From a virus (taxonomy: Duplodnaviria > Caudoviricetes): DNA of 64,000 nucleotides. Position 1 is the first letter of the stretch. Each line of letters opens with the position of its first letter. The notes below the pieces were generated by a model. The model saw only the letters and a list, made by a program, of their open reading frames with translations, was not told the origin of the DNA and ran no database searches. The translations under genes and the position numbers were made by a program. The stretch is taken from the IMG/VR virus record IMGVR_UViG_3300013901_000014, positions 1-64,000 of that record, one strand, 5' to 3'. This document shows, piece after piece, positions 25,401 to 38,267 of the stretch.

Positions 25401-25839
25401 CTACGCAAAATACAAACTAAGACGTAACACACCGCTCACTGCTTGGATGTATGGCGAGGACGGCAGAAAGGAGCGTGTCGCCAAGTATAAAAAAGCAGCC
25501 AACGATGTGGCAAAGGAAAGACTTTCGGCGTTGACCGACAGCCGCAGCGGTGAGGACTTCACAGACTGGCGCAATGAGTACAAGCAGACATCTGAAGGTT
25601 GGGGCCGCATAAACGGGCTGAAGGATACAGACCCCGACCAATATGCGGCAGAAAGGAAGCAAATCGCGGGAACACCGGCCGACACACGCTACCGCATAGA
25701 GAACCGCTACAAAGCACGCATCAACAAACTGACCGATGCGTGGCTTAAGGCCAAAACACCAGCAAGGCGGATGAAACTCGCCGATGCGATGGTTGCCCTG
25801 AAAAAGGACGAAGCCAAGCATCTTGCAGCGGGTAAGTAG
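7468..25839 (+). CDS. giant (6123 aa) polyvalent virion/ejection protein
   Basis: One uninterrupted ORF. Recognisable modules: GrpE-like (about 11240-11510), PBECR/RelE-like nuclease (about 12780-13220), LPD5-like (from 13822, IEDVGEHIAGARKD), LPD1-like HEWWH (15496), kinase (about 16620-17110), ART-like VYHGS (about 17176-18050), HEYAH (18154), ART-like KVYRAVP (about 19280-19490), HEAVGH (21097), second PBECR-like (about 21690-22100). Confidence 0.9.
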   Translation: MAYDRLYKLYDALKEQNATSVDREAFHKQMSAPGFEGYQNRLQLYKELKANGYVDYPNYETFSAELGMHAAAPAKGAQKHQQRQQTTPAKPQSAKPQPTKPQQGWTAAQRKQAEAQLEQNAYDNARLSRQWQQQSQNAKRMQQRAKHIGTDFTGDFRAKAEARMAGIATPEPNMIGSSNNAAKATGVVIGDDGRAYNQYETDDGSLTTNVGDVIRANETRNLRERLNRHGLDPENVTDDDIMKMYADEAYDAALRADKTANQQAVDEDAGRTPLETMRRAVANYDDLDDEYSDVEREVKRAQRINPDAMVAETLRRMPPSVLSRLRRQYGLYYEQHPKELKRGQNAQQAAEEAIKGSIYQHVYNKLVAANAPKSTLEYLMRKIADQPLYSQHIANQTAAGAITGNHAQYLADEQAMSAYENEHPVTGFFGTVGNMAADPTMYIGGWVGSMASKAVARGIGRAVVKGASEKMAERLAGRTLAGRIAQGVAAGAGNLGFYEGSHAALRQDRTGEHSIGDVLAATGRGVLLGAATGVAAPLIGNVADKVVARTASTGGKLAVRTGETATSVLAEGTIFAAPELIENARLADGDPNKRSGWSIWAGSLGTMAGFKGKHLIESAPRVLAELRTDGARRGVGFEGRLRNMLDRTPADLQMTNADLQELRDRGYGGLADLYAQVRPPKLPSTPPEFRTTPPPLKDYAQYAQPEELGKNKDKDLDGYSAMQRLMDDHSVSAAVRAKAYYLLTGKMLPMPSVLSYDRTANDDGTITITALGAENPIPAYGSGPKSKMQEMGADVVVRKTFKSAKEADVYEAKVRRQIELNTVDVGEQLREAQVQDDALDAAIDAVYPEGNHELLKNQYWSGRVKSIKDAIDKYLESQLTANSPHNPHTIRRGIEEEYGVDIDKALKKEPNRRTQAEVEAVQEYANELYNFGGREETVENAQVGGSGQAGVPPAAGATSEEAAKSTTENAAEQAHEEGKKAWTDNDGADDDTALQGAVDEKAARAHAALDRLNELFDEEAVSVIKEDPNAMLSSPALSEEHRAAIQEYIEAMAGLDGVKEAAQKAAEQNQAEVENEVVKSTNKETKLLMPATMKDDSGKLVSIYVVDGKLVLNTSGGIDTQKSAQTIVVYDPNTGKYRFVDPHDILELGLPVSPDTAVQSAIDAIQQRHNGIFDHAEQAARQQKSLPAPTAEGGEGPKPPRGRKMVVKCLRELSEAKKPIDKLNAIARILYTVKYGSEGIITPEEQALVDKTLAELKEEGYEIVDKWEGQPYDEGMKLSSDTEFKLVEGENIWGVQDGETKIVGLNKPEVWNMKEETTQYRIGPNGERIPYKTKGRRLQSAAAIVVTRDDTGWSVTARRLEEVKGRLERLKKGQAPTKVIEHLEKDVAGLERQLAEEKKQAAARDKLKSLFTNEEITAIRKDPYAMLDSPGLSEEHRAAIREYIEAYNIKRKEPEGEASATGEGMTGSESTPAPEEKQPIQMGSGALGSIPKNEKGEPVYEQAEPSTAWQAILEQTEGDTDMAAGVVDSMIADKEAAVKKAKKAKPKHADTIAGKIAAEKERKAAIERAKAELEAWKKIAAAKAGHEKAVAERKAAEAKQQEAEQQTVQGQPTEPKQEEQPKADDEDAAERAIAVETDWNDKIDDYIVEHYPHIDGTRARTPEEQKLYDAEREALKNDKTYKEMIAARDAAIEKTEETKQQEQERHEAAVDQAEQPTKPEKADKPVKAEPTEAKEGKQSTEAEGEKPDGQNDGADSEMPEAGEGEDAGKNPSLGDVISTLYGKGKDFASRIFNMKFFDFAKTPDFMKRLGITGSKFTIRYGVIARHFGKDGSHDFTQSEWEQLPNAIGHPFAITRLADKEKGFRIYTTFKTEKGEYVVVGVDVKNAGRDVEVNAISTLFGRRNGAHLSENEQVVYRSEIITPEQESLLSRPNSDQYPPERESSEGKDNASGADTQEGGGKSAVAVKEKPEEKPKKDDDDDGPDGPTAGGAATGGKGKPESDSESEEVKKLRKEYDEACDHLEDVMTEWDDKIIDYIAEHYPTQATVSAETRSPKGIKEREAMDNDPVLKKMREERNAAVKKADEERYKAFKRMDAAETGKGEQEPASPSAAAEQKKPAERKIEDVGEHIAGARKDALAELSQSVADVTLESLIELPASKAFKRPDLKRAVKEGVLREEDARFAEAVMAAYLGAAKPKLKEGYRRAKSEAAVRAWAEHAKEGVDLLAKLFSLDEKGRDKYMAEVRARKMYSEEEVRERQRQLEQWNPGKKFNGTCYPLNPVDVMARVMERLGYEAGAKVALPVVAAAPDSGFGYYVLTTRNGKTYYPGRWLTTIDDVVDEIVYAAKVENADPDTDHPAGKFSVKGVGEVLTEHTGKWTVITQRSLSARVEQHTFGSKEEAEAFAEKYKAGGKNRYASAPEEEVRAAGYTQYEIVYRHDSPTKGTGVYMPTGKMYGSLEEARAAIDGEHDELNGIVNAKLAEEKGKGGEGRKKDYVKIVLYTEDGRTWKYGVVLDDKYAPKKTSTGSMPFYLGDGFGTRKEAQAFVDKHREEWDAKIADIEKARRDFVYFKGTGERTGQDWRKGADVSAEQLMEQFGFRGVQFGNWTNQRDRQAAVNGAFDALMDLAQILGVSPRALSLNGELGLAFGSRGGGSAKAHYEPDEVVINLTKTQGAGSLAHEWWHALDNYFARHGNVKGGMVTESKGIAMRDELREAFNALIDSVAGSDYNIRSRQRGASYWGRPAEETARLFAAWVSDELQKRGLSSPFLSDTDPGAAERYAEMMYRLYKAMYESRKAETGGKAMTFEEFKKTPLALSGFVFPGTEELAAFGGHLRNIFNTVQEKVDGQTGKTLLYHRGPVVAEPNEAEQALLEAVNGVLKDTGIEVVTDTDEGQKVLDAANGNDVKLEASHRSGEAEERNKMWRLIDRATAMFTGKTEKEAREARRKEMQKITAERKEMYDRVLSGNFDEVTLRQIDNYIDNFSPYNNEWRPISKRLPQKALRGLRKGERASAVDVLFSRISESAVPKNERAGAEGKRRIEEKKKELLKKWAIATGNWHTSVSDFTDAKEPLGSGKDSDVYQSKDGKHVIKVSKGKDGLKKFRPDIDAVTLFNYIFPESRYEILGYGEVDGKFVKFLKQPVVDFTGSKPLSAEERVAYMADMGFKPVNKEKTAFSNGTIVVADLQGNNIVRDKSGNIRVIDADVKLHTKDFGGQYSYPPVEADTALPQANNGGNEKPRMQKVYHGSGADFDEFDNSHMGEGEGAQAYGWGTYVTEVEGIGRTYAKATARYDDNSSEEVLNRVESLAADLIKDRFGFRPGLSVSARGDNYDLEIPSDKKTLEQIKSYFDEYPYMWNAKVDRELSSFNLDDAASRREFANWVYEIVEPFAADAVGYAQKEETASRHLYTVEIPDDNGENYIDYNGRISDIPSQKIDAICTELEKLGWKRKDLPSMVRLTDGYGNIVLNPNAAGADLYEEIKVALKSQKLASELLSRAGFAGIKYPAEYMSGGRKDGAKNYVIFNEKDARITDHVRFFRTSGGEAYGFTVGGKIYVDPRIATADTPIHEYAHLWGDMMRRVNPKAWGDIVRLMKGKGGLWDWVKKNYPELETDDEVADEVLAQFSGKRGAERLREEMRKTAEGSGSITEKAKAISALQRVKEALGRFWRGVAELLHIRFTTAEEVADRVMADLLHGVDPRKVSNDNRYNEFAEKHKVDANEVKDYATAIKDGNLMAANRALSEIRRTLRVAHREMNLQEFGKFFRPINQELAERFGDIEKLRQEHIAAAEREHNAMEAARKKAEEEEAKKRKRQEELSMLTADEIDKRYAEALERGDEAAAREMLDEAARRNGYGDTESDYQGVGAWVAPSNPGYESDEARRADVEDNAPDVNLEDMALGYNLQPDDYFTHPERYSQDTPHGRESTQAIHAALEALKRGDKDVKVKVYRAVPTSVKEGSLRNGDWVTPSRKYAEMHGKSRLEGKYRIIEDEVPAKDLWWDGNDANEFGYDDGRGYKYKNTKNNRKLNDLVTRDDDGNIIPPSKRFNEREQDVRYSLRHVFGGNSGYVGYSMSKRAAQAREDGRYPKTDFRKEYSVTPKTFDALVDAGVIDSGEWHHTSMYGNKTPFYGWKPMYDAVYAANKKEVDKMARTLKMQQTEAEFSDYLDNDNPYRYRPTSEEYQKKMGDIDRQESHAARDINLMYDDAYNPETERKRMQELQSLREKSGKLKDEVRRQYPEDAAIEAENRKGVDWHVEQIEKRNKEREALRQKFHDYFDAKRDELVYDEMEKAGILTMGADGPHWSKPKYAEIFNHYKDAAIDTIAEAMAERLKNPYDEDYAEGISEYRKDLQKVKADKWAEGNALNAKYRDKEFRKQHPDYYKREKMLEEEKERLREKYEALEEDVLKRHPEELERRQKAFEWPSDEEAQQQAREKLLAERLQQFFEEDTADPDEGKKFRLLDDDDPQAQELSLPEGEPKETLAQAMVRRVKELAAKLGAKVRIVTSADDLPKTPGSRQRRMKGMYDTRTGEVTIVIGNHENLADVENTVLHEAVGHRGFRVLFDTKEKFDHAMDELYRVSGGKIRKWIDDKVRKLYDDEVDRIMERKRKERRARGEGPSEHHLEDMAAAAIEASKKKDQFRREATEEYGARLAGRIGEKGFEKLSAEEQTFWGRLKSMLQKALQRLAEGLNITGRHEWTDKDWAYVLHEAYKREKNGGKPSIFDEADTIAMRMRTGFGEGKEEGRKMTTLSGEEAKQALNEIFSAESHTVKPEKISSLAKFRDIFSKPIRTFLGEVIKVKDAVWNKVLRENRQNISGAILPTLQNADFAIRDTDGSILYVKRFLNSTGESTYNVAVVNKHGELEDYISSVHIKTNNNLLNKIGKGAELLIPENRNGYGHEVPSSSTPDAKIDIENESGNTFGSNKYKKSSDENPDEGMMFRDGDDDDIGDVDLGDAVDKMRDAAVESNANNLQAKREAMKAIGGNLSKLRQAMSRQKVYDKGTVKSVTDMAREMLQNGMLDKLSGYEAKRILSAAANVTGAENTARQINKLMDVMVDNQLRNAGDTFGKLLHSKGTRVNASGVEVQGKLDPDGAAIVDALKKGVQLDKEELNGRIGKALDKIGSEDKVIADQAANELAGLQLASRYVEDIKGSKAEETELRESLKEAKAQKDAGKMSAEAYKQYCEATEDAIRQNKIERADAYRQLIAQLGGVMGESAERAKAWREAEKQRVQDIQHNANSDMQGRPCNEHHKPSSLQKLCNSDLIRGLLMPLATFEQMLRMFGNKNVHGEGYLWNRFVRGWLRASENEYSGYRDALKELDDKVSEIFGKKMRWGDIFSLERKLPTMEVKFWDGGEMKPHTLTQGNLAYIYMVDKMSDGRMKLRAMGITEGDVEQIAKALDPKLKKLADWMQDEFLVQRRNKYNEVHKRMFGASMAAIENYFPLKILSGARTENVDVADDTGEPTMTSTTTGSIVKRRRNNLALDITNADAFSVILEHLQDMEHWAAYSEFNRDLNTLLSYRRFKNQVMNMSSAYGAGATLWKNFRNVCQLAAGSYRPPVATLDKTMVNLAKGVTAAKISFRIFTAIKQLLSFPAYLPDASARYLLQNLANPVGAWKWSIENLPLFHKRWNSRMAGDPRLLKTEMDWKMWRSRVVQMASKYGMSPNAFVDAVTVAMGAHAIYKTKLAKYLKQGYDKDKAEEKARQDAEIAYNQTQQSSEGAFLSTMQADRTWGSVLFTVFRNSAMSYTRQEYDALRNLARKLTTKGYKEKSIGFMAKQMVRDGLDENTAWRNAKRTYSRSIWREFVRVATFGYILQLAWNLGAYLPYLLLGDNDDDKKKMLEDAGLHALVGSVEGLTGGDVLSTAGQYALTGEGTIGNLKKEMPLTSDLHAIYQSFDYDAVQATNDVLNLLVQAGVGVNPQSLTDAVVGVMDYCENNPADARECALLIARIFNTPQSQLDKIYFDEIDLDGSDARKLSPKQIAERYAKYKLRRNTPLTAWMYGEDGRKERVAKYKKAANDVAKERLSALTDSRSGEDFTDWRNEYKQTSEGWGRINGLKDTDPDQYAAERKQIAGTPADTRYRIENRYKARINKLTDAWLKAKTPARRMKLADAMVALKKDEAKHLAAGK
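13228..13309 (-). ncRNA. candidate antisense sRNA with promoter inside giant ORF (after nuclease domain 1)
   Basis: Minus-strand TATCTTTG at 13302-13309; ACTCCCG-N2-CAGG / CCTG-N2-CGGGAGT closing stem; U-rich tail. Confidence 0.5.
16350..16380 (+). promoter_or_regulatory. consensus Bacteroidetes promoter internal to giant ORF
   Basis: TTTG (16350-16353), 19-nt spacer, TAACTTTG (16373-16380). Confidence 0.6.
16424..16621 (+). CDS. candidate nested out-of-frame 65-aa gene before the kinase domain
   Basis: Starts 43 nt after the internal promoter with A at -3; charged helical sequence; stop coincides with the start of the kinase core. Confidence 0.45.
   Translation: MNGDQFLNDFHRRHYEACEKENARVRSMYFSHEYLKAQSQRMNELVQKEREELRRKRKNSSKSGQ
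22099..22179 (-). ncRNA. candidate antisense sRNA with promoter inside giant ORF (after nuclease domain 2)
   Basis: Minus-strand TATCTTTG at 22172-22179; 14-bp stem GGUGUUGAACUGCU/AGCAGUUCGGCACC that is continuous only on the antisense strand (two U-G pairs), followed by UUUU. Confidence 0.6.
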
Positions 25840-25858: not shown

Positions 25859-25906
25859 CAGAGAGTGGGTGCAATAATGACTAATATTGCACCCACACTG
25901 TTTTTG
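25859..25906 (+). terminator. terminator/attenuator between giant gene and portal
   Basis: GTGGGTGCAATA/TATTGCACCCAC 12-bp stem followed by TGTTTTT. Confidence 0.75.
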
Positions 25907-25913
25907 CATACTT

Positions 25914-27899
25914 ATGATAACAAAGAACAACGATAAGGACACAGCCGTGGTGCTGCTCAGCCTGAGCCGCGTGACACCCGAGCCCGAGCCGAGCAGCGAA
26001 GAGATGGACAGCGTGAAAGTCTCGCAGCTGCAGCAGGACAGGCGCGCGTTTGACGTGCTGATGGAGGCACAGTACTACTGGAACCAGATGGATGACTTCC
26101 GCCGTGAGCGGCAGCGCAACAAGCGCTACGCCTACGGCAAGCAGTGGGACGACCTGATTACCGTGGACGGCTGCACGATGACCGAGGAGGAATACATAAA
26201 GAAGCAGGGCAACGTGCCGCTGAAGAACAACCTCATCCGCCGCCTGATGCGCAACGTGATAGGTGTGTTCCGCAGCCAATCGAAAGAGCCGACATGCACC
26301 GCCCGCGACCGCGACGAGCAGCGGTTGGGCGAGGCGATGTCGACACTGCTGCAATGCAACATGCAGCTGAACCGCATGGACGAGTTGAATGCGCGCACTA
26401 TGGAAGAGTTTCTGATAAGCGGCATAGCAGTGCAGCGCAAGAGCTATGGCTGGAGAAATGGGCGTGAGGACTGCTGGACCGATTATGTGCAGCCGAACAA
26501 CTTCTTTATCGACAACAACATGCGCGACTTCCGCGGCTGGGACGTGGGCTTTCTTGGCGAAGTTCACGACATATCGTTTGGACAGCTGTGCGAGCAGTTT
26601 GCCTCCACTCCCGACGACTACAGACGGCTGCGCGAGATATACCGCAACGCATCGCGCAAAGACTACATAGCATCGTACGCCGCCAGCTTCGGCTACAGCA
26701 AGCTCGACAACTACGACTTCCTGTTCACCAGCGAGCCGGGCCGCTGCCGCGTAGTGGAAGTGTGGCGCAAAGAGCAGAAGCCGCGATACCGCTGCCACGA
26801 CTACCAGAACGGCGACATCTTCAAGGTGGACGAGGAAGACTACGCATCGCAGGTGCTTGCCGTGAACGAGCAGCGCATGCAGATGGGGCGCGAGTATGGC
26901 ATGGAAGATGACGACATACCGCTAATCACCGCCGAGTGGTTTATGGACGATTACTGGTACTTTTACTACCTCAGTCCGTTTGGAGACATACTGAAAGAGG
27001 GCGAAACCCCGTTTGAGCACGGCTCCCACCCTTACGTGTTTAAGGTATATCCGTTCATTGACGGAGAGATACACAGCTTTGTGGGGGACGTGATAGACCA
27101 GCAGCGGTACACCAACCGCCTGATAACACTCTACGACTGGGTGATAAGGAGCACCGCCAAGGGCGTGCTGCTTGTGCCCGAGGACTGCCTTCCCGACGGC
27201 GTGAGCATGGACGACATAGCCGAGCGGTGGTCGGAGGTGAACGGAGTGATAGCGTTCAAGCCGAGCAAGAGCGGGGCGGTGCCGAGCCAAGTAGCCAGCA
27301 ACGCCACCAACATAGGCGTCGCCGAGCTGCTGAACATGCAGCTGAAGTTCTTTGAGGACATATCGGGCGTGAACGGTGCTTTGCAGGGCAAGCCAGGCTA
27401 CAGCGGCACAAGCGCGGCACTCTACAACCAGCAGACACAGAACGCCACCACATCGCTGCTTGACTTGCTCGAAGCGTTCAGCTACTTTGTGAAAGACGGA
27501 GCATACAAGGACGTGAAGAACATCCAGCAGTTCTATGACGAGAAGCGCGTGCTGAACATTGCCGGCAAGAGCGGCGCGGCAATACAGCTCGACCCACAGA
27601 GAATACGCGACACAGAGTTTGACTTGAGCATTACCGAGAGCACGAGCACGCCAGCATACCGCACGCTTGCCAACGACATACTGATGCAGCTGTGGCAGGC
27701 TCAGGCAATCAGCGTGGAGCAGTTGCTTGAATACGGCAACTTCCCATTTGCCGACGACTTGCTGCAAAGCATTCAGTCGCAAAAAGAACAGATACAGAAC
27801 GGCCAGACACCGGAGGGCATGTCGCCGCAGCTGCAACAGCAGGTGCAGGCACAAGCCAACCCACAGGCAATGGAACGGCTACAACAATACATGCAGTGA
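25914..27899 (+). CDS. portal protein (P22/podovirus-like)
   Basis: 661 aa from ATG 25914; N-terminal YYWNQMDDFRRERQRNKRYAYGKQW; Q-rich barrel-like C-terminus; context. Confidence 0.85.
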   Translation: MITKNNDKDTAVVLLSLSRVTPEPEPSSEEMDSVKVSQLQQDRRAFDVLMEAQYYWNQMDDFRRERQRNKRYAYGKQWDDLITVDGCTMTEEEYIKKQGNVPLKNNLIRRLMRNVIGVFRSQSKEPTCTARDRDEQRLGEAMSTLLQCNMQLNRMDELNARTMEEFLISGIAVQRKSYGWRNGREDCWTDYVQPNNFFIDNNMRDFRGWDVGFLGEVHDISFGQLCEQFASTPDDYRRLREIYRNASRKDYIASYAASFGYSKLDNYDFLFTSEPGRCRVVEVWRKEQKPRYRCHDYQNGDIFKVDEEDYASQVLAVNEQRMQMGREYGMEDDDIPLITAEWFMDDYWYFYYLSPFGDILKEGETPFEHGSHPYVFKVYPFIDGEIHSFVGDVIDQQRYTNRLITLYDWVIRSTAKGVLLVPEDCLPDGVSMDDIAERWSEVNGVIAFKPSKSGAVPSQVASNATNIGVAELLNMQLKFFEDISGVNGALQGKPGYSGTSAALYNQQTQNATTSLLDLLEAFSYFVKDGAYKDVKNIQQFYDEKRVLNIAGKSGAAIQLDPQRIRDTEFDLSITESTSTPAYRTLANDILMQLWQAQAISVEQLLEYGNFPFADDLLQSIQSQKEQIQNGQTPEGMSPQLQQQVQAQANPQAMERLQQYMQ

Positions 27900-28294
27900 T
27901 GAGGCTTATACTATTCTTGCTCAGGTACACGCCATTTGTGTTGACGCTGCTGATGATAGTCCACACGGCTCTGCTGCTGCGCGGAATTGATTGCAGCGTG
28001 CTGAACCATGCGTGCTTGTCGCCTTTGCCCTATGCGCTGTATATGGCGTTGAGCGTCAAGATGAAGTTCTGCGTGTTCCACCGCCTTGCACTGACATACA
28101 CGTTTGTGTTGTATATTTGCATAACGTTGCAGAGCTACAACGCCTTTGATGCTGTCGGCATTAACCTGCAAAGCGCGCGGCTGGTGATGCTGATAGTGGG
28201 AGTGATATTACTCACGGCATTTTTCACGATTAAGTTCTATGAATGGAAGAGAGGAATTAAATGCGGTGCTTGCCGAAATTGCGGCAGCTGCTAA
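27899..28294 (+). CDS. multi-TM membrane protein with C-terminal CxxC motifs
   Basis: TGATG overlap with portal stop; 3-4 hydrophobic segments. Confidence 0.7.
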   Translation: MRLILFLLRYTPFVLTLLMIVHTALLLRGIDCSVLNHACLSPLPYALYMALSVKMKFCVFHRLALTYTFVLYICITLQSYNAFDAVGINLQSARLVMLIVGVILLTAFFTIKFYEWKRGIKCGACRNCGSC

Positions 28295-28698: not shown

Positions 28699-30786
28699 CT
28701 AAAACGAAGCCTCGGAAATGGCCTTTGCGTGTGGTGCTGAATAGGTGGCGCGGGTGACAATCGCGGGCGGGTCCATTTCGCGGAAACAGATATGCAGGCC
28801 AATGGCGCGCGTCATCAACAAGTCGTCGTGCTTGCCGATGATAGCGCCGAAAGCCCCATTCGGCTTGCGCTCGTAGGTAATGTACTCATCAAGACAGCGC
28901 GCGTCACGCTCAACATACATGCGCTCGCGAATGACCTTGACCAGCGTGGAGATAATCATAGGCTTGGTTGCGACATTGGTATGAAAGCCATACTTGCGCG
29001 GCAGCCCCTCGCGTATCTCCTCCTCAGACTGCTTGCGCTCGTAGAGGTTGGGATACACATCCTTTATCTGATTGAGGATATAACCAGACTGGTCGCCGTC
29101 GACCTGGCGCTGGCGGTCGTGCGTCTCAAGCGTGTTGCTCTCAATCACAAGCAGAGAGTTGTTGTAATAGGCCGCTATCTGCGCGGCTTTCCACGCCAGC
29201 AAGTCAATGTCGATATGCCCATACCATTGTGCGACAACCACCGGTTTGCCGCCGTCAGCCATGAACAAGCGGTCGAACACGACCACGACCGACCAGTCGG
29301 CCTTGTTGCTGCGGCCGCCAACATCGACCACAGTAAGATAGCGGTTGGTGACAATCTCTCTGCCGTCGGGCTCAGGGTCGGCCCATACCCACAGTTGCCC
29401 TTGCGAGTCGTCACGGAAGCGCAGCGACTTGAGGGCATCGCCGCCCTCGTCGCCATCGGCATACACATCGCCTATGCGCTTGGGCGCGCGGCAAGCATCG
29501 CGGAACCGCTCGACAAGTCCGGCATCAAACACGTGCGCGCCAGAGTTAACAAACGCCTCCACATCATCGCTTGGGTACTCAGCCGCCATCTGGCCGTGGT
29601 CGGTGTACTTGGCGCGCTCGCCAACATACCAGTTAATGGCTTCAAGCGTGGCCCCCTTCTCCCACAGCCGCCACAGATAGCGTCCGCTTTCCTCACGGCT
29701 CGACACCGCATTGTCGCGCTCACGGTTGAAGTAGAGCCATTGAGCGAACTCCACGGCATCGTCAAGCGGCTGCGAGTATGCCTCAATGTCGAACCACGAA
29801 ACGAACATAGCCTCGAACTGCGAGCGCTTCTGCGGGTCCTTGGCGTCATCATACTCACGCTGAAAAAAGTTGCCCGTGCCGTTGGCAGTGCTTTCGTAGA
29901 CAATCATAGTGTAAGGCTTGAGCAGAATACCAGAGCAGGCCGACCGCACAATATCCTCCGGCTTCTTTCCTTCGGTGGCTTTCCACAATCCCACCTCCGA
30001 AAGATGGACAAGGTTGTAGTCGCCGCCGCGGCAGGAGTCGGGCCGTTCAGCCGTACCGATTTTGATTTTGCAGTTGCGCTGCGGCACACGGAATATGGAG
30101 CCGGATCGTCCGACGCCCACAATCTTAGGCTCGTTCTCGTTGTACCGTTCGCCAAGTTGGTGCAGCATACTTACCGGGTAAACCTTAATCATGCGGTCGA
30201 ACATGTCCTTGATTTCGTCAGAGCCCGCACCCTGATGGGCAATGATGAGCGAGTTAAGGCCCACCTGGTGGACAAGCTGCAACCACGCCATATAGATTTG
30301 CGAAGTGGTAGAACCGCCCCACTGGCGTGCCTTGAGCAGCACTATGCGTATAGGCTTGCCCGCAAGACGCAGCGACTCCAACCGCGCCACAAAGCGGCGC
30401 TGCGGGCGCGTGAGACGGAACAGCACATCATTGCCGCCGCCCTTGTTTTTGATGTAGACAAACATAGCCGCCCAAAAAGGGAAGTCGTGCTTGCAGCGCA
30501 CGCGCACGAGCTGGTCTACAACCTTGTGCCGCTCCTCATCAGACGGCTCTACATTGAGCTTGGCAGACAGAAACTCATCGACACTGCCGCACTCCACAAC
30601 CTGCTTCACCAGCGGTACGGAAAGCATGGAGGCGGGCAGCCACTGCTCGGCCAGCGGGAAGTCGGGCAAGCGCACAAGCGTGCGCTCGCCGACAGAGCCA
30701 AGGCCGGTAATAGGATTGAAAGGCGCATTAATCTCAGCGTTGCGCCGCTCATTCTCTTTGAGTATGTCTTCTATCTCCTTTTCCAT
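28699..30786 (-). CDS. terL: terminase large subunit (podovirus module)
   Basis: Walker A LKARQWGGST, Walker B VHLSEVGLW, YESTANG coupling motif, nuclease VVDVGGRS...DWSV; likely start MEKEIED at 30786. Confidence 0.92.
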   Translation of the reverse strand: MEKEIEDILKENERRNAEINAPFNPITGLGSVGERTLVRLPDFPLAEQWLPASMLSVPLVKQVVECGSVDEFLSAKLNVEPSDEERHKVVDQLVRVRCKHDFPFWAAMFVYIKNKGGGNDVLFRLTRPQRRFVARLESLRLAGKPIRIVLLKARQWGGSTTSQIYMAWLQLVHQVGLNSLIIAHQGAGSDEIKDMFDRMIKVYPVSMLHQLGERYNENEPKIVGVGRSGSIFRVPQRNCKIKIGTAERPDSCRGGDYNLVHLSEVGLWKATEGKKPEDIVRSACSGILLKPYTMIVYESTANGTGNFFQREYDDAKDPQKRSQFEAMFVSWFDIEAYSQPLDDAVEFAQWLYFNRERDNAVSSREESGRYLWRLWEKGATLEAINWYVGERAKYTDHGQMAAEYPSDDVEAFVNSGAHVFDAGLVERFRDACRAPKRIGDVYADGDEGGDALKSLRFRDDSQGQLWVWADPEPDGREIVTNRYLTVVDVGGRSNKADWSVVVVFDRLFMADGGKPVVVAQWYGHIDIDLLAWKAAQIAAYYNNSLLVIESNTLETHDRQRQVDGDQSGYILNQIKDVYPNLYERKQSEEEIREGLPRKYGFHTNVATKPMIISTLVKVIRERMYVERDARCLDEYITYERKPNGAFGAIIGKHDDLLMTRAIGLHICFREMDPPAIVTRATYSAPHAKAISEASF

Positions 30787-31286
30787 TTGCAGAACAAAAA
30801 GCGCACCGCAGCGCACAGCAGCCCCAACAAGTAGCACCAAAGGTGGACAGCCGCGCTTGAATTGGGCAGCGCAAAACCTATAGCCAGATACAGAGCCATG
30901 CAGCACTGATAGTACCAACGGCGGCGCACATCGAACGACAGCAGGCCGAACAAGGCGTAGACCATTCCCGACAGCCCTATGGTGGGCGTAAGCAGAGAAG
31001 CGAACCAAGCGCCAAGCCAGGCAGCCGGCACAGATGCCGCAATGGCAGCAGCCAGTAGCAGCCGCGGCCACCTGACCTCATACAAGAACACGACAGAGAG
31101 CAGACACCAGCAATTGAGTGCGGCATGCAGCAGATTGGCGCGGAAGAACATGTAGGAGAGCCTCCCCCACCACGGGCCGCCGGCATACAAGCCGACCAAG
31201 AGCCAATCAACGTGAACAACAGCCACGCAAATCAGAATTAGAGACAGCCATAGAGCCGCAGCCTTTTCAGTTTTTCTTCCCTCCAT
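30771..31286 (-). CDS. rhomboid-family intramembrane serine protease
   Basis: LLHAALN, catalytic GLSG, distal AVHL histidine, about 6 TM segments; likely start MEGRK at 31286. Confidence 0.8.
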   Translation of the reverse strand: MEGRKTEKAAALWLSLILICVAVVHVDWLLVGLYAGGPWWGRLSYMFFRANLLHAALNCWCLLSVVFLYEVRWPRLLLAAAIAASVPAAWLGAWFASLLTPTIGLSGMVYALFGLLSFDVRRRWYYQCCMALYLAIGFALPNSSAAVHLWCYLLGLLCAAVRFLFCKWKRR

Positions 31287-31690
31287 TTCTTGCGGGCTTT
31301 GCAGATTATCAGTTTCGCACTGCCGGCCGACAGATAGAACCTTGGGGCGGGCTGCGCCACAACCTCGGCGCATAACTCCGTTGTAGTCCAATCGGGGTGC
31401 AGCTCGCGCAGTTCCAGCACACGGCGGTATATCTCCATGAACATCTCACGCTTGAGCGGACGCATGCGCAAGTGCTTGCGCTCGCCGCGCATTATTGCGG
31501 CCACCACCACAGAGGCGCGTATGTCGGAGACCCAGAAGCGTTTGGCGGGCGACTCCACCACGGCCTGATAGATGTCGGGCATGCGGATTTGGGCGCACGC
31601 GGCGATGTGCCGGTCATACGTCCTCATAAGGTCGGCCACCCTTTCATCTGAATACTCCATCTTACTGCCAAAATGCTTCATGCCTAACAC
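31238..31690 (-). CDS. hypothetical DNA-binding/late-regulator-like protein
   Basis: Basic 140-150 aa ORF, first in the operon with rhomboid and TerL. Confidence 0.65.
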   Translation of the reverse strand: MLGMKHFGSKMEYSDERVADLMRTYDRHIAACAQIRMPDIYQAVVESPAKRFWVSDIRASVVVAAIMRGERKHLRMRPLKREMFMEIYRRVLELRELHPDWTTTELCAEVVAQPAPRFYLSAGSAKLIICKARKKWREEKLKRLRLYGCL

Positions 31691-31759
31691 GTTGATTTAC
31701 CATAAAGTTAGCGATTTACAGCCGTAAGAAGATAAACAGACAGAGCCTATATGGGCGAT

Positions 31760-31767
31760 TAATTTTG
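31760..31767 (+). promoter_or_regulatory. promoter for head operon
   Basis: TAATTTTG 38 nt before ATG 31805; divergent intergenic region. Confidence 0.6.
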
Positions 31768-31804
31768 TGAAGAGAATTATTAACGCTACATACGAAATAT
31801 AGAT

Positions 31805-32593
31805 ATGGCTGAAAATAAGGAAGTTAAGAGCAACCGCGACACGATGCTTGAGCGCATGCGCAACAAGTATCCCGACGAGAACTTTGACGACGACGAAGCC
31901 TTGTACGGCAAAATCAATGCCGATTACGACGATTACGACAGCAAGCTGAAAGGCTACGAAAACGACAACAAAGTGTTGTCGGACATGTTCGCCGCGGACC
32001 CGAGAAGCGCGCAGTTCCTATCGTCGTGGCAGCAGGGCAAAGACCCCGCGATACAACTGGTGGAGCTGTTTGGCGATGACTTCGTAGACGAGTTGAAGAA
32101 GCCCGAGAAACAGGAGGAGCTTGCGCAGGCGAGCAAGGCGTTTGCCGAGCGCGTGGCGAAAGAGAAAGAGTACGAGCAGCAGTACAACGACAACATCGAG
32201 CAGACACGCAAAACCGTGGAGCAGATGCAGAAGGACGAAGGCCTGAGCGACGACGACATTGACCGCGCGATGGAGTTCCTCGTGAACGTGATGCAGGACG
32301 GCATTGTGGGCAAGTTCTCGCCCGAGAGCATACACATGGCGCTGAATGCGCTTGATCACGACAACGACGTGGAGCAGGCCGACCGCGAAGGAGAGGTGCG
32401 CGGACGCAACGCCAAGATTGAGGAGAAGCTGCGCAAGCCCAGAACCGGAGACGGCACAGCCGACCTTGCAGGCAAGAACGCAGGCGGCACAGGACTGCGG
32501 CAAGCGCCCGAACTTGGAGCGATAGGCCAGTACGGCGACGCCAACAAGAGCATTTGGGAGCGCGGAGGTTTCCGTCGCCGCTCAGGAAGATAA
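31805..32593 (+). CDS. capsid scaffolding protein
   Basis: Acidic, helical, directly upstream of capsid gene. Confidence 0.7.
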   Translation: MAENKEVKSNRDTMLERMRNKYPDENFDDDEALYGKINADYDDYDSKLKGYENDNKVLSDMFAADPRSAQFLSSWQQGKDPAIQLVELFGDDFVDELKKPEKQEELAQASKAFAERVAKEKEYEQQYNDNIEQTRKTVEQMQKDEGLSDDDIDRAMEFLVNVMQDGIVGKFSPESIHMALNALDHDNDVEQADREGEVRGRNAKIEEKLRKPRTGDGTADLAGKNAGGTGLRQAPELGAIGQYGDANKSIWERGGFRRRSGR

Positions 32594-32625
32594 CAACAAT
32601 CACCATTTAAGAGAGACAGATAGAT

Positions 32626-34065
32626 ATGAACAAATTCAAGACAATTCTGAGCTTTATGCTCAACGGCCTGGCCATGCTGGCCACGGCTGTAGTTAGCGCC
32701 TCGTGCGGAGTGATGATGGCCGATGCCACGGCACTGCCCGACGCAGGCAAGACAGAAGGCGGCAACGGCACCACCGACCAGACCCCCGACGGCATTGCCA
32801 CCGAGACCCGCGGACGCGCAGACGGCGACCCCGACTTCTACATGTCGGACGTAGACAAGCGCATTGTGAAAATCCGCCCCATGGCAACGCCCATCGACCA
32901 GATTTCGCGCTATGCGAAGTCGTCGAGCAGCAACAGCTTTGAGGTGAAGTATTACAGCGTGGGCACACGAGAAATCAAGTGCAAGACCACCGCAGCCGTG
33001 GAGGAACAGACACAGGGCGCGAGTGTGAAGTTGAGCGTGGCCGACACCAACATGTTCACCCTCGACGACACAATCCGCGTGGTTGGCGTCAAGGGCGTGA
33101 CCAACGACAAGGGCGTGGCCTACAATCAGAAAGACCCCAACTGCCCCGACCTCGTGCTGTGCGTGTGCGGCAAGGACACCGAAACCAACATGCCCATCGT
33201 GTATGCCGTGAACGGCAACATGGACACTTCGAGCAAGCAGCCCATTCTTGTGCCCGCAATTCCCAACGGCACAACACTGGTGCGCATGGGCAAGGCGTGT
33301 GGCGAGCTTGATGTGCAGACCGGCCGCTTCAACAACATACCCATGCCCGAGACCCAGTATTGCCAGAACTTCATGATACAGGTGGAGCAGTCAACATTCG
33401 ACAAGATTGCAGCCAAGGAGGTCAACTGGGGCTTCAGCGACGTGGAGGAAGACGGCATCTATGACATGCGTCTCGCAATGGAGAACAGCTTCCTCTTCGG
33501 TGTGAAGAACATGATTAAGCACGTGACCAAAGACGGCATGGCTACATGGTTCACCGGCGGCCTTTGGTGGATGGCCGGCAAGGACATTGAAGTGGGTACA
33601 TGGGACGCCCAGAACAAGTGTGCCGTAATCAGCGACGACAACCTTGTGGACATCACAAAAGACCTGTTTGTGGGCACCGGCATCGGCAACAAGCAGAAGA
33701 TTTTGTTCTGCGGTTCGGACATGCTTTCGGCATTCTCGAAAATCAAGAGCGAGAAATTCCGCCTCAAAGACACCGTGGAGGCATGGAACCTCAAGTTCAA
33801 AAGTTGGGATACCGACTTTGGCGAAGTGCTGACAATCCACCACGAGCTGTTTGACGTGAACGGAATGAGCGACTGCGGCTTTGCAATGGACCCCGAGTAT
33901 TTATCGAAGAAGACCCACGTGAGCTGGGCGCGCAACGTGCTCGACCTGCAAAAGGCCGGCATCCGCCGCACCGATGCAGTGGTGATTCAAGAGGTGTCGT
34001 GCCTCTATCTGCGATATGCCAAGGCCCATGCGCGCCTGAGACTTGCGCAGGCCCCCACAGAGTAG
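32626..34065 (+). CDS. major capsid protein with hydrophobic N-terminal leader
   Basis: 479 aa, between scaffold and strong terminator; ETQYCQNFMIQVEQS resembles the HK97-fold (SU10/DUF5309-like) N-Y-T-Q-I-F region. Confidence 0.8.
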   Translation: MNKFKTILSFMLNGLAMLATAVVSASCGVMMADATALPDAGKTEGGNGTTDQTPDGIATETRGRADGDPDFYMSDVDKRIVKIRPMATPIDQISRYAKSSSSNSFEVKYYSVGTREIKCKTTAAVEEQTQGASVKLSVADTNMFTLDDTIRVVGVKGVTNDKGVAYNQKDPNCPDLVLCVCGKDTETNMPIVYAVNGNMDTSSKQPILVPAIPNGTTLVRMGKACGELDVQTGRFNNIPMPETQYCQNFMIQVEQSTFDKIAAKEVNWGFSDVEEDGIYDMRLAMENSFLFGVKNMIKHVTKDGMATWFTGGLWWMAGKDIEVGTWDAQNKCAVISDDNLVDITKDLFVGTGIGNKQKILFCGSDMLSAFSKIKSEKFRLKDTVEAWNLKFKSWDTDFGEVLTIHHELFDVNGMSDCGFAMDPEYLSKKTHVSWARNVLDLQKAGIRRTDAVVIQEVSCLYLRYAKAHARLRLAQAPTE

Positions 34066-34536: not shown

Positions 34537-35172
34537 ATGGTGTACAAACTTGATGACGTGTTGCGCGATGTGCGCGTGGCCCTCGACCGCAACGGAGTTT
34601 CGGCCCCGCTGATAGAAGAGGGAGACATCGACACATTGTCGCTGAACGAAGTGATACGCAGCAAGGTGGTTGAAGCCGCGCGCCGCATAGAGTCGGAAGC
34701 CCCCGCGCACCTGCTGGAGGGCGGCCACACATTCGGAGATGCGGTGTATTGGGCCGACAAAGGCTGCGGCTGGGTGCTGCTGCCCGACGACTTCATGCGG
34801 CTTATAGTGTTTGAGATGAGCGACTGGGAGCGGCCCGTGTACAGCGCCCTATCGGCAGACGATGCGCGGTTTGCGCTGACACACAGCCGCTACAAAGGAC
34901 TGCGCGGCACACCGCAGCGTCCCGTGTGCTCCATAGTGTACCGCCCCGAAGGCCGCGCACTTGAATTCTGCTCGTGCAAAGACGAGACAGCCCAAGTCGC
35001 GCAAGGCAACTATCTGCCCTATCCCAAGACAGACGACAATGGCGGAATAGACCTGTGTGAGCGCTGCTACACCGCAATCGTGTATCAGACCGCGGCGCTT
35101 GTGGCAATGACATACGAAGAGACCGACAAAGGTTCGGCGTTAAACGAATTAGCTAAATCAGCATTAATATGA
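34537..35172 (+). CDS. head-tail adaptor / tail tubular protein A-like
   Basis: About 210 aa; position between capsid and tail spike genes. Confidence 0.6.
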   Translation: MVYKLDDVLRDVRVALDRNGVSAPLIEEGDIDTLSLNEVIRSKVVEAARRIESEAPAHLLEGGHTFGDAVYWADKGCGWVLLPDDFMRLIVFEMSDWERPVYSALSADDARFALTHSRYKGLRGTPQRPVCSIVYRPEGRALEFCSCKDETAQVAQGNYLPYPKTDDNGGIDLCERCYTAIVYQTAALVAMTYEETDKGSALNELAKSALI

Positions 35173-38100
35173 GTTCCATACCTACAAAAGAATTGGCGGG
35201 CGACATCAGCGTGGGACGCAACGCCACAATGGGCGGTGACGCCACCGTGCGCGGCAAACTCACCATCGGGCATAACCTGAAAGTGGAGGGGTGGCTTGAC
35301 GCGGCCAACATCAAAGGGCCGTCGAAAGGGCTGTTCGCCACACTCGACAACCTGAAAGAGGCGTACCCACTACCAACGGCCGGCTGGTGGGCGCTGGTGG
35401 GCGACACACTGCCGGCAGCCGTCTACATTGTGAAAGACGGCGTGTGGACCGCCACCGGCAAGACCGGCGGCACAACCACGATAAGCAGCGACGAGATAGA
35501 CAAGCTGCGAACCGAAGCCAACAGCGCGCAGGCCATAGGAGAAGACAACGCCAAGGCCATCACAAAACTGCAAACCGACTTCCAAAGCGGACAGGCCGAG
35601 CAGAATGTGAAGATAGCCAACAACGCCAGCGACATCACCGAGCTGAAAGAGACCACGGCAACGCACGGCACGGAGATAGCGGACATATACACCGACACAA
35701 TCAAGCGGCCAGGCGACTTTGTGCTGACCGCAGCCAGCGCGGCTGTGCCCTCATCGGCCACGCGCGCATATATTGGGGCGGCAGTAAACCCGTCATCGGA
35801 GCTGAGCATAACCATTCCCGCAGGCGTGGAACTCGCATTCGGGCGCGACGGCAAACTCGGAGCCAACGTCAAACTGAAACTGAACAGCACAAAGATAGTG
35901 GCGCGCCCCGACCAGCAGATATTTACGGCTGGCTGCAAAGTGAGCGGCCCGTTCAACTGCCCCTATATTCCCGTGGAGTGGTGGGGGGCCAAGGGCGACG
36001 GCGTGACAGACGACACAGAAGCCATCAACAACGCCATCAAGTACGCCGGCCGCACGACTGTGCTGCTCGCCGCAGAACGTTATTACGTGGCCGGCACGGT
36101 GCGCATAGTGGAGGGCGAGAGCGACAAGAGTTATTACGACGAGTCGGACGACCAGAACTATATGACCGACGGCATGTATGGCCAGAACGTGCTGGTGCGC
36201 GGTTCGATATGGGGGGGCAAGGCAGCTTCGCCAGTTTTGTATATAGACCAAAGCAGCCTCACACTGGAAGTGCGTGGAGCCGTAGTGTGCCACAAAGATG
36301 CCGACTGCGCAGTGTGGGCCAACACCGAGCGCAGCACCGACATATACATTAACCGCATAGGGCGTGCGCGAGACTACACACAAGGCGTGCAGTCGGAGGA
36401 CGACATCACCAAGTACGGCTTTGGCAAAGGCACGGCATTCCGCCACTATGGAGGCCGCGGTGCGCGCATCTGCATCAATACCATATTCGGCTTCAAGTAT
36501 GGTTACAACGCTTCGACAGACGATGCCGACTACTACATAGGCTGGATGTGTAACGAGATAAAGCTTGGCAACGTGGTGTGCAGTTACCCGATATACGTGC
36601 ATCTTGCCGAGAACGGCCCGAGCGTGAACCGCAACCAATCGTTCTTTAACAGCAACAGCATAAGGCTGCAAGCGTCGGTAGTTGGCTGGAAACCCAAAGT
36701 GCAGGCACAGATAGCCTCCGAGGACCACGACACCGCCGTGCTGACAATGGTAGACGAGACAGGGTGGCCAAGCGCAAAAATATCGGACTGCGATGTGGAG
36801 ATAATGGCGCTGGACTGCGCATGCTACAAGGTGTGCCACGTGCAGCGCACAGCCATGCTGAGCATCACGGCCCGCGGAGCATACAACGACGTGGCCGGCA
36901 TGGGTGGAGTGAACGGCGATGCAATGCGCGCGTGCTGCAACAACCAAGCCCCCTACTCCGACACGCGCAAAATCGTGGAGTTCATCGACAGCGAGCAGAC
37001 CCGCTACATAGTGCAGGGCACCCCAACCCCACCCGAGGCAATGCTGGTGAAAGGCTGCCGAGACTTTCGCACCAACATATTGCAGAACTACTACAACCTT
37101 GACCAATGGTTTATACTCGTCCCAGAAAACTTCTGGTATGCCGCGAGCTTCGAGCCGGCCTCACTGCTTGAAACACTTGGAGGCGACACAAGCAAGAACT
37201 CCCTTGCCGCCAACGGACAGGCAATGTTTATTGACAGCGGCTGTCTTGACAAGTGGAACGTAACCACAATATCGAGCGAAAAGGAAGCGACAAGCGACGG
37301 CTTATATCAACTGAAGCGCGACAGCAGCCGCGTGTGCGCCGTGCTTGAAGTGAAGTCGGGTGTCAAGCATTGGATAGGCTATGTGATACCTAACGGTGAG
37401 CGCGGCCCGATGGGACCGCAAGGCCCCAAGGGAGACAAAGGAGATACCGGGCCGCAAGGCAGCACCGGCCCAAAGGGCGACACCGGCGCGCAAGGCCCGA
37501 AAGGTTCGCAAGGCGATAAGGGTGATACCGGAGCCAAAGGTGACCAAGGTGAAAAGGGTGACACTGGAGCGAAGGGTGACCCGGGCAACGATGCTGTGGT
37601 GTACAGGCTGCTGCCTGGGGCGCTTGTGTACAAGGCGGACACGACGGCAATCACCTTGTCGCTGCTGAAGACGGAGGGCGAGAGCACCACGACTGCGGAG
37701 CTGCCGAGCGGCTGGCGTGTGGTGGTCAGTTGGAATGCCACGGGTGGGCTGACGAAGAGCGCCACGCTGAGCACGCTGGCGGCTGTAAACCCGAACTCGC
37801 TGGCTGGGGCGACGAGCGTGCAGTTGGCGCTGTTCACGGCCGACCCAGAGGCGAGCGGCAGCAGTGCGCAGCTCGTGGACAGCGCCACGATGCTGCTGGT
37901 GGCTGACGGCCTCAAGGGCGACAAAGGGGATGACGGCACGCTGACCAACTACCCGATTGAGGCGGTAAGCGGAGGCGAGATTGTGCTGAGCGACATTTAT
38001 CCCAACCGCATCTACAAGGGCGGCACGTGTACGACAGTGAGCGTTGATGTGGTGCATTACAGCGATGGCACAAGCGGCAGCGACTTCAGCGCCCACGGGG

Positions 38101-38267
38101 GCGTGGCCGATGAATACGTGCTTGACTTCGTTGCGGGGGCGAGCTGCAACGTTTCGCTGCCCGCCTCGCTCAAGTGGGCGTTCACCCCCTCGTTTGACGA
38201 GGGCAAGCGCTACGTGATTAGCATAGTTGACAACCTCGCCATTGCGGCAGAGTTTAACGGGGAGTAG
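35169..38267 (+). CDS. tail spike/fibre with pectate-lyase-like beta-helix and collagen-like segment
   Basis: WWGAKGDGVTDDTEAINNAI start-of-beta-helix motif; Gly-X-Y repeats at about 37400-37585. Confidence 0.8.
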   Translation: MSSIPTKELAGDISVGRNATMGGDATVRGKLTIGHNLKVEGWLDAANIKGPSKGLFATLDNLKEAYPLPTAGWWALVGDTLPAAVYIVKDGVWTATGKTGGTTTISSDEIDKLRTEANSAQAIGEDNAKAITKLQTDFQSGQAEQNVKIANNASDITELKETTATHGTEIADIYTDTIKRPGDFVLTAASAAVPSSATRAYIGAAVNPSSELSITIPAGVELAFGRDGKLGANVKLKLNSTKIVARPDQQIFTAGCKVSGPFNCPYIPVEWWGAKGDGVTDDTEAINNAIKYAGRTTVLLAAERYYVAGTVRIVEGESDKSYYDESDDQNYMTDGMYGQNVLVRGSIWGGKAASPVLYIDQSSLTLEVRGAVVCHKDADCAVWANTERSTDIYINRIGRARDYTQGVQSEDDITKYGFGKGTAFRHYGGRGARICINTIFGFKYGYNASTDDADYYIGWMCNEIKLGNVVCSYPIYVHLAENGPSVNRNQSFFNSNSIRLQASVVGWKPKVQAQIASEDHDTAVLTMVDETGWPSAKISDCDVEIMALDCACYKVCHVQRTAMLSITARGAYNDVAGMGGVNGDAMRACCNNQAPYSDTRKIVEFIDSEQTRYIVQGTPTPPEAMLVKGCRDFRTNILQNYYNLDQWFILVPENFWYAASFEPASLLETLGGDTSKNSLAANGQAMFIDSGCLDKWNVTTISSEKEATSDGLYQLKRDSSRVCAVLEVKSGVKHWIGYVIPNGERGPMGPQGPKGDKGDTGPQGSTGPKGDTGAQGPKGSQGDKGDTGAKGDQGEKGDTGAKGDPGNDAVVYRLLPGALVYKADTTAITLSLLKTEGESTTTAELPSGWRVVVSWNATGGLTKSATLSTLAAVNPNSLAGATSVQLALFTADPEASGSSAQLVDSATMLLVADGLKGDKGDDGTLTNYPIEAVSGGEIVLSDIYPNRIYKGGTCTTVSVDVVHYSDGTSGSDFSAHGGVADEYVLDFVAGASCNVSLPASLKWAFTPSFDEGKRYVISIVDNLAIAAEFNGE
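37400..37585 (+). repeat. collagen-like (Gly-X-Y)n coding repeat
   Basis: GPMGPQGPKGDKGDTG...GAKGDPG, about 20 triplets. Confidence 0.9.

Follow-up and report, generated by a model that had tools for sequence, protein, structure and literature searches.

The major capsid protein (MCP) of a tailed phage that begins with what looks like a membrane signal, encoded beside an intramembrane protease, raises the question of whether the second acts on the first. HK97-fold capsid proteins are generally taken to be soluble and cytoplasmic, and the proteases known to mature them are likewise soluble, acting inside the procapsid. The locus studied here lies in a window of 64,000 nucleotides (positions 1 to 64,000 of the IMG/VR virus record IMGVR_UViG_3300013901_000014; Duplodnaviria, Caudoviricetes); the entire record has 78.9 kb, is rated 100% complete by CheckV and belongs to a gut Bacteroidales-type phage. 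A preliminary description of this DNA had pointed to an intact-looking rhomboid (GLSG, distal His) and, divergent from it, a capsid protein with a signal-peptide-like start. Both observations hold, the first in a PF01694 score above cut-off, invariant catalytic columns and a GlpG-like model, the second in the conservation of the same leader, which starts as had been quoted, among homologues. We find that a Sec-signal-like MCP leader is conserved across a clade of Bacteroidota phages, most members of which add their own rhomboid in the head module. The pairing of rhomboid and leader is real and conserved across a very large phage clade, and its interpretation as enzyme and substrate is plausible, though still unproven, and meets a concrete topological objection. 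The features on which the argument turns are the following:

32626-34065, + strand: MCP precursor, 479 aa, HK97 fold of the SU10_MCP/DUF5309 type (PF17236, E 9e-31)
32626-32721, + strand: signal-peptide-like leader, codons 1-32, with a basic n-region, a hydrophobic helix and S-A-S-C-G-V-M-M-A up to Ala32
32722-32871, + strand: acidic, Gly/Thr/Asp-rich disordered linker, residues ~33-82 (AlphaFold2 pLDDT <50 for residues 26-64 and 71-82)
30771-31286, - strand: rhomboid, a minimal intramembrane serine protease with six transmembrane segments (TM1 to TM6; PF01694), 171 aa from the ATG at 31286
30969-30971, - strand: codon of the catalytic Ser in G-L-S-G (Ser141 of the long open reading frame, or ORF; Ser106 from the likely start)
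30843-30845, - strand: codon of the catalytic TM6 His (His183 of the long ORF; His148 from the likely start)

The capsid protein and its leader

The MCP belongs to the SU10_MCP/DUF5309 family of HK97-fold proteins and has an extra N-terminal extension. Its core was modelled by AlphaFold2 (AF2) with pLDDT 80-94 and has the HK97 fold, and Foldseek matched it to capsids 335 times at E<=1e-3, with VP1 (9in6, E 5.8e-24) in first place, followed by crAss001 and SU10. The extension is missing from the solved relatives and from the Pfam model, the match to PF17236 beginning only at residue 65; AF2 predicts a helix at residues 2-26, then about 55 disordered residues that lead into the HK97 core. Portal, terminase and scaffold are all encoded in the same module as this MCP.

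The leader pattern, consisting of a basic n-region, a hydrophobic run and the sequence G-A-S-S-G-V-x-M-A, recurs in 120 close homologues and also in most of 150 representatives with identities down to ~28%. Codon-position entropy across 83 distinct close genes indicates that codons 2-35 vary chiefly at third positions and that the motif at codons 28-35 is constrained as strongly as the MCP core, while differences in leader length amount to whole codons. In these 83 genes, Ala32 is conserved in all, Val29, Met31 and Ala34 in 79 each, and Gly28 in 74. In a set of 59 MCPs with 26-96% identity, Ala32 and Met1 are the only near-invariant columns of the leader. Judged from its sequence, the leader is therefore real, translated, selected and of membrane type. 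Since its N-terminal flank is basic (K+R 3.2) and its C-terminal flank acidic (D+E 3.8), it is predicted to adopt an N-in orientation. Several of its characters are those of a rhomboid substrate, according to the criteria described for AarA/GlpG substrates: a small P1 residue (Ala32), a hydrophobic P4 residue (Val29, 79/83) and a helix-destabilising run, G24-A-S-S-G28.

The rhomboid

The longest ORF of the rhomboid gene (30771-31391, - strand) matches PF01694 with an E value of 6.6e-8 (33.3 bits, against a cut-off of 22.6), and its start is likely the ATG at 31286 (MEGRKTEK), as in the isolated Bacteroides phage BS-TP4. In addition to the catalytic Ser and His, the protein contains the TM2 HxxxN motif. 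When 49 phage copies, 19-46% identical to that of the window, were aligned, only H54, G104, S106 and H148 were invariant, and H49 and N58 were near-invariant (>=90% conserved); taken together, these columns are the rhomboid catalytic set. The AF2 model has a pLDDT of 95.2 and a pTM of 0.90, and in a Foldseek comparison with the PDB the matches ranked 1-19 were all GlpG (TM score 0.6-0.68, probability 1.0), the remaining matches in the rhomboid superfamily being GlpG and iRhom. By sequence and predicted structure, the phage protein shows every testable defining feature of the rhomboid family (PF01694/MEROPS S54) and belongs to it. It also looks catalytically intact: because the catalytic set is invariant and the predicted fold is that of GlpG, we read it as an active enzyme, in support of a role in leader processing. 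Positively charged residues (K+R, 49 sequences) number 8.6 in the N-tail, loops 2 and 4 and the C-tail versus 1.5 in loops 1, 3 and 5, which points to the canonical N-in/C-in topology with an active site open to the periplasmic side.

Distribution and history of leader and rhomboid

Searching 1.8 billion representatives, we obtained 662 MCP relatives. Some 400 loci with flanking sequence were available, in which rhomboids were scored by an iterated hidden Markov model and verified by Pfam on whole records. Nearly all full-length relatives down to ~28% identity start with a basic hydrophobic leader. Leader and rhomboid were compared in 88 MCP clusters (<=85% identity) with >=4 kb of upstream sequence, 44 of which are rhomboid-positive. 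All 44 have a single hydrophobic zone (median 25 aa) followed by an acidic linker (median 52 aa). The 44 rhomboid-negative clusters mostly have a two-part apolar leader (median 38 aa) and a shorter linker (median 32 aa), or are leaderless; the two-part leader consists of a ~20-aa helix, a Gly/Pro/Asp turn and a second stretch rich in Gly, Ala, Val and Thr. The automatic measure of hydrophobic zones splits some two-part leaders, and the 13 rhomboid-less rows that it scored as single-type are artefacts of this kind; the Mann-Whitney p of ~5e-7 for the comparison between rhomboid-positive and rhomboid-negative clusters ignores relatedness and is not to be counted as evidence. Among the surveyed clusters, the rhomboid was never met without a leader-bearing MCP. 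One locus (L266, 4046-7317) seemed to combine a single leader with the lack of a rhomboid but was set aside as a decayed prophage fragment: its MCP adjoins a transposase-like ORF of an insertion sequence (IS) element and sugar-metabolism genes of the host, and scaffold, TerL and rhomboid are all missing.

MCPs with neither leader nor rhomboid were found in very small chromosomal islands and at 55 distant SU10-like loci. Two of the islands (L182:7755-13724 and L183:943-4329) contain a gene for an acidic protein of 68-72 aa, the MCP, a protein of ~170 aa and a short P22-like portal; that of L182 has, additionally, a TerL-like gene, an integrase nearby and the host recQ/recJ genes adjoining. These islands look like capsid-forming satellites or domesticated remnants.

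The rhomboid gene has a constant place in the head module. The distance from its end to the MCP start is 1.1-1.5 kb in 100 of 106 distinct loci, and this spacing of ~1.3 kb upstream of the MCP persists both where TerL has moved (L184/L185; L191/L193) and with MCPs that are only 24-35% identical. Across the 44 rhomboid-positive lineages, the MCP is the sole conserved membrane-type protein in the rhomboid neighbourhood, and no other conserved single-TM or membrane protein that might serve as substrate was found within ~4-5 kb of the rhomboid.

Three temperate Bacteroides phages obtained as isolates, BS-TP4, BKO1-TP3 and BF1-TP2, show the same layout; their MCPs share 81%, 81% and 47% identity with that of the window, and no other isolate in the phage collection carries this MCP. 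The clade's relatives have been reported in about a third of the gut viromes of one cohort (PMC12694917). In the GenBank entries of two isolated relatives (PQ571277.1, L001, and PQ571263.1, L002), TerL is labelled 'tail spike protein', the MCP 'DUF2951 domain-containing protein' or 'DUF5309 family protein', and the 16-kb gene 'hypothetical'. A prophage with the rhomboid and single-leader MCP module was also detected in the cultured Odoribacter laneus YIT 12061 (L421, NZ_JH594596.1, ~2.144-2.157 Mb), a lysogen candidate that could be used as an experimental system.

A quick maximum-likelihood tree of the MCP core was rooted on SU10-like sequences that have no leader. In it, all leader-bearing MCPs fall into one clade (support 100) whose earliest branches are rhomboid-positive. 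The rhomboid-less phages fall into two separate nested clades (support 99 and 98), in both of which the leader is two-part or gone. The simplest history comprises one gain of the rhomboid and two losses, with the leader architecture altered at each loss.

Does the rhomboid process the capsid leader?

It is quite possible, if somewhat short of probable, that the substrate of the rhomboid is the leader of the phage's own MCP and that the rhomboid is a dedicated head-morphogenesis gene. We advance more tentatively the fuller proposal that the signal-like leader delivers the capsid subunits of a tailed phage to the cytoplasmic membrane, from which the phage rhomboid frees them for assembly. Under this proposal, the leader would bring the MCP precursor to the inner membrane, concentrating or holding back subunits; the rhomboid would cleave at or near the helix-breaking G-A-S-S-G / V-x-M-A32 stretch; and the mature subunit, from around Asp33, would then assemble on scaffold and portal. 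In the rhomboid-less relatives, a second apolar stretch after the same motif may fold the leader into a hairpin such that the body of the protein stays cytoplasmic, and these phages would either rely on a host enzyme or leave the leader uncleaved. The conserved synteny of the head module, the presence of a single-zone leader in 44/44 rhomboid-positive clusters, the missing rhomboid of leaderless MCPs, the rhomboid-positive basal lines of the tree, the substrate-like residues of the leader, the lack of any other nearby candidate substrate and the absence of S78, S49 and ClpP proteases from the complete genome favour processing by the rhomboid and support it in part.

Several points weigh against it. 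The main obstacle is topological: with the predicted orientations, in which the rhomboid site faces the periplasm and the leader is N-in, the scissile region lies on the wrong side. The leader is not of type I (N-out) and, although its site is near the outer leaflet, the direction of the chain is reversed; a periplasmic site in the leader therefore means that, for the capsid subunit to be cytoplasmic, the polar linker must recross the membrane. A conceivable way out, which is pure inference, is that the leader inserts as the usual loop and the linker returns through a protein channel; the extra ~20 polar linker residues of the rhomboid-positive phages would correspond to about one membrane crossing. 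The leader fits a Sec/signal peptidase I (SPase I) signal about equally well (Gly at -5, Ala at -1), and its P2' residue is Ala34 (79/83) and not the bulky hydrophobic residue that characterised rhomboids prefer. Strict co-occurrence of leader and rhomboid must also be rejected, since two clades retain the leader without the rhomboid. Three rhomboid-less genomes, all 100% complete, keep a leader with a similar G-V-x-M-A motif, so the phage rhomboid is not generally required for a leader-bearing MCP. Replacement of the rhomboid by another protease was considered for these three genomes and rejected, as no rhomboid, S78, S49 or ClpP gene was found in them; an explanation of the losses by host phylum is likewise unsupported, the rhomboid-less relatives also being mostly in metagenome-assembled genomes (MAGs) of Bacteroidota, within the imperfect binning of MAGs. 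There are only two independent contrasts, which go in the same direction (sign test p 0.5), and two contrasts alone cannot bring the association to statistical significance. Finally, no proteomic or N-terminal data for any member of the family were found in the literature, and the paper that isolated the BS-TP4-type relatives contains no proteomics and does not mention the rhomboid. The earlier idea of membrane-tethered capsid subunits released by the phage rhomboid thus stands in part: the paired distribution and the intact enzyme speak for it, the topology and the rhomboid-less, leader-bearing relatives against it. The preliminary description had named co-occurrence as a check and, as grounds for refutation, the same leader with the same processing in rhomboid-less relatives, which is borne out in part; all 44 rhomboid-positive clusters are leader-bearing while two clades have the leader without the rhomboid, and the leader of these relatives, despite its similar G-V-x-M-A motif, is longer and two-part.

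Two other explanations, too, start from a genuine leader. One, the strongest competitor, which we hold to be rather unlikely but worth serious attention, is that the leader is taken off by host SPase I (cutting between A and D of V-x-M-A-D) or by a rhomboid of the host, and that the phage enzyme serves a different purpose, either the clearing of leftover leader peptides in the manner of a signal peptide peptidase or the cutting of a host or phage membrane protein (a receptor, or one involved in defence or in lysis timing). The leader does have the classical layout of a Sec signal, with a basic n-region, a hydrophobic h-region, the helix breaker Gly28 at -5 and the small, invariant Ala32 at -1; the complete rhomboid-less relatives keep it with a similar motif and no phage protease of known families; a rhomboid is present in all 14 control cell genomes, that of Bacteroides thetaiotaomicron among them; and the gp93 rhomboid of the Stenotrophomonas phages DLP3/DLP5 lies among accessory, not head, genes (PMC7326821). 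However, position -3 of the SPase I site (residue 30) is mostly Met, Leu or Thr (45, 10 and 11 sequences) and not Ala, Val or Ser (Ala 3, Val 11), and cleavage by SPase I implies that the capsid body is exported. A capsid that packages DNA must be cytoplasmic, which makes an exported mature domain unlikely for the MCP. Neither does this explanation account for a rhomboid that has no other conserved membrane-protein companion, stays beside scaffold and MCP down to 24-35% MCP identity and is missing wherever the leader is absent or two-part. The other explanation, improbable in our judgement, is that the leader is never cleaved and acts as a permanent membrane anchor in assembly or as an internal capsid or ejection peptide, the rhomboid being unrelated to it. 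P22-like heads with a separate scaffold are generally known to need no proteolysis, the three complete rhomboid-less genomes have no S78, S49 or ClpP protease, and the long flexible linker could let the leader tuck inside the shell; yet a capsid holding several hundred hydrophobic helices would be out of the ordinary, the constrained motif with its invariant small residue resembles a processing site, family members that have no leader show that the fold can assemble without one, and the rhomboid distribution follows the leader type.

The remaining two explanations are all but excluded. It is highly improbable that the leader is an annotation artefact and that translation truly starts at Met30 or Met31, even though Met31 is conserved in 79 of the 83 close genes and Met-Ala is a common true N-terminus. 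The third-position bias and whole-codon length changes extend throughout codons 2-35, nearly all members have the basic-start hydrophobic leader, even those without Met at that place, and PHROG 26635 aligns from residue 7. Moreover, the ATG at 32626 is preceded by A/G-rich sequence, 32 nt past the stop of the scaffold gene, whereas the internal ATGs at 32713 and 32716 are in GC-rich sequence. An internal Met30/31 as sole start was accordingly rejected on codon constraint, homologues and ATG context, though a minor second start may exist. As for a lipoprotein signal (lipobox ...S-A-S-C27) and a lipidated capsid protein, the window does have Cys27 after small residues, but this column holds Ser (60), Asp (7), Asn (5) or Gly (3) in almost all homologues; the lipobox reading, which calls for the invariant +1 Cys of SPase II substrates, was rejected on this unconserved Cys27 and we regard it as practically negligible.

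If the rhomboid does free the capsid subunits, head maturation would for the first time be seen to involve an intramembrane protease, and capsid assembly would pass a membrane checkpoint in one of the most prevalent gut phage lineages. If rhomboid and leader are enzyme and substrate, capsids mature here by a novel route, and the two make up one of the few natural, dedicated rhomboid-substrate pairs of the bacterial world. If they are not a pair, the leader still calls for an explanation because it conflicts with cytoplasmic assembly. The three isolates, together with the Odoribacter laneus lysogen candidate, make the question directly testable.

The head module and its surroundings

The other genes of the head module are the following:

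25887-27899, + strand: P22-type portal (PF16510, E 1.2e-43; phrog_156, E 3e-103)
28699-30795, - strand: TerL, the large terminase subunit (phrog_2, E 3.6e-21; TerL of relatives 73-77% identical)
31238-31690, - strand: 150-aa protein, 5' of the rhomboid (phrog_27246, a family of unassigned function)
31805-32593, + strand: scaffold-like acidic 262-aa protein (phrog_22323), directly 5' of the MCP and divergent from the rhomboid operon

The 150-aa gene, the rhomboid and TerL overlap tightly on the - strand, the rhomboid gene sharing 49 nt with the end of the 150-aa gene upstream and 25 nt with the start of TerL. The co-transcription of rhomboid and TerL that had been asserted is thus plausible, as both the common strand and the overlap are confirmed. 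A gene of ~130-190 aa fills the slot upstream of the rhomboid in nearly all rhomboid-positive lineages, and its position suggests that the 150-aa product is a putative small terminase subunit. The 262-aa protein, whose gene keeps its position in all relatives, is a putative scaffold by position and composition. Neither of these two neighbours has a significant Pfam match even at E<=1. Downstream of the MCP, the + strand continues with two small head genes and then a collagen-repeat fibre. The portal is of P22 type and the closest solved capsids are those of VP1, crAss001 and SU10. As had also been remarked, the phage has no recognisable prohead protease: the standard families (PF04586, S78; PF01343, S49; PF00574, ClpP) have no match across the complete 78.9-kb record. 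Such an absence is normal for P22-like heads having a separate scaffold protein.

Directly upstream of the portal lies an uninterrupted ORF of 6123 aa (7468-25839, + strand), which looks like a giant 'polyvalent' multi-domain protein; its counterparts in relatives have 5391-5727 aa and Pfam matches that include InPase, SNF2-type helicase and LPD38. Overlapping the portal stop, a gene (27896-28294, + strand) encodes a 132-aa multi-pass membrane protein with a Cys-rich tail, CGACRNCGSC; BS-TP4 does not have it and carries small reverse-strand genes in that place. The tail-fibre-like protein of 1032 aa (35169-38267, + strand) contains, mid-protein, a collagen-like Gly-X-Y run (GPMGPQGPKGDKGDTGPQG...), and its counterpart in BS-TP4 (gp14) was reported as the target of a diversity-generating retroelement (DGR; PMC12694917). 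The + strand has a strong, sustained excess of A over T, with an AT skew of 0.1-0.4 over most 2-kb windows of the analysed stretch. The G+C content of the window (52-64%) exceeds the usual Bacteroides values by a wide margin, which may point to a host from a higher-GC genus of Bacteroidales.

Comparison with known systems

Among characterised enzymes, the phage rhomboid most resembles GlpG of E. coli and H. influenzae (2IC8, 2O7L, 2NR9), with which it shares the six-TM core (TM score 0.6-0.68), the TM2 H..xxN, TM4 G-x-S and TM6 His motifs and, by charge, the N-in/C-in topology. In contrast with GlpG, to which it is 15-20% identical, it has only ~170 aa and no cytoplasmic domain, its gene overlaps TerL and it is fixed in the head module. 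Rhomboids have already been annotated in phages, being named in the GenBank records of BS-TP4 and BF1-TP2. The gp93 protein of the Stenotrophomonas phages DLP3/DLP5 is described as a 'rhomboid membrane protein' (PMC7326821). It is similar in size to the rhomboid studied here (about 175 aa), but its gene lies among accessory and cell-envelope-modifying genes and a link with the capsid protein was not reported; we found no paper in the literature that links a phage rhomboid to a capsid protein.

Removal of an N-terminal extension from an HK97-fold MCP by a dedicated or borrowed protease is what the prohead-protease systems have in common with the process proposed here. Capsid propeptides are removed by HK97 gp4 (S78), T4 gp21 and ClpP/S49-type prohead proteases, and host Prp cuts the N-termini of the capsid and scaffold proteins of staphylococcal 80-alpha. 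All these are soluble enzymes, their propeptide substrates are not membrane-like, and the site of action is the procapsid or cytoplasm; unlike in such systems, none of the S78, S49 and ClpP families is represented in the complete record. For the involvement of the membrane, there are precedents of a membrane-started head and of phage proteins with releasable signal-like N-termini: the T4 prohead initiates on the inner membrane via the portal gp20, M13 procoat is cut by leader peptidase, and signal-anchor-release (SAR) endolysins are also known. The leader-bearing MCP differs from them in that the membrane-bound part of T4 is the portal, and procoat and SAR proteins act outside the cytoplasm.

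The AarA-TatA pair of Providencia stuartii and Vibrio RssP/VesB (rhombosortase) both appear in a 2025 review of the rhomboid superfamily, which lists a handful of bacterial substrates and never phages (PMC12615303). As would be the case for the phage pair, AarA trims a short N-terminal piece and so activates one dedicated partner. TatA, however, has an N-out orientation, is shortened by only a few residues and stays in the membrane, whereas the phage leader is predicted to be N-in and its cleavage would yield a soluble capsid subunit. Rhombosortase is paired with GlyGly-CTERM, a C-terminal sorting signal of type I orientation on exported proteins. The likeness here is that of a rhomboid-family enzyme tracking a Gly/Ser-rich membrane sorting signal across genomes; unlike GlyGly-CTERM, the phage signal is N-terminal and stands on a protein destined for the cytoplasm.

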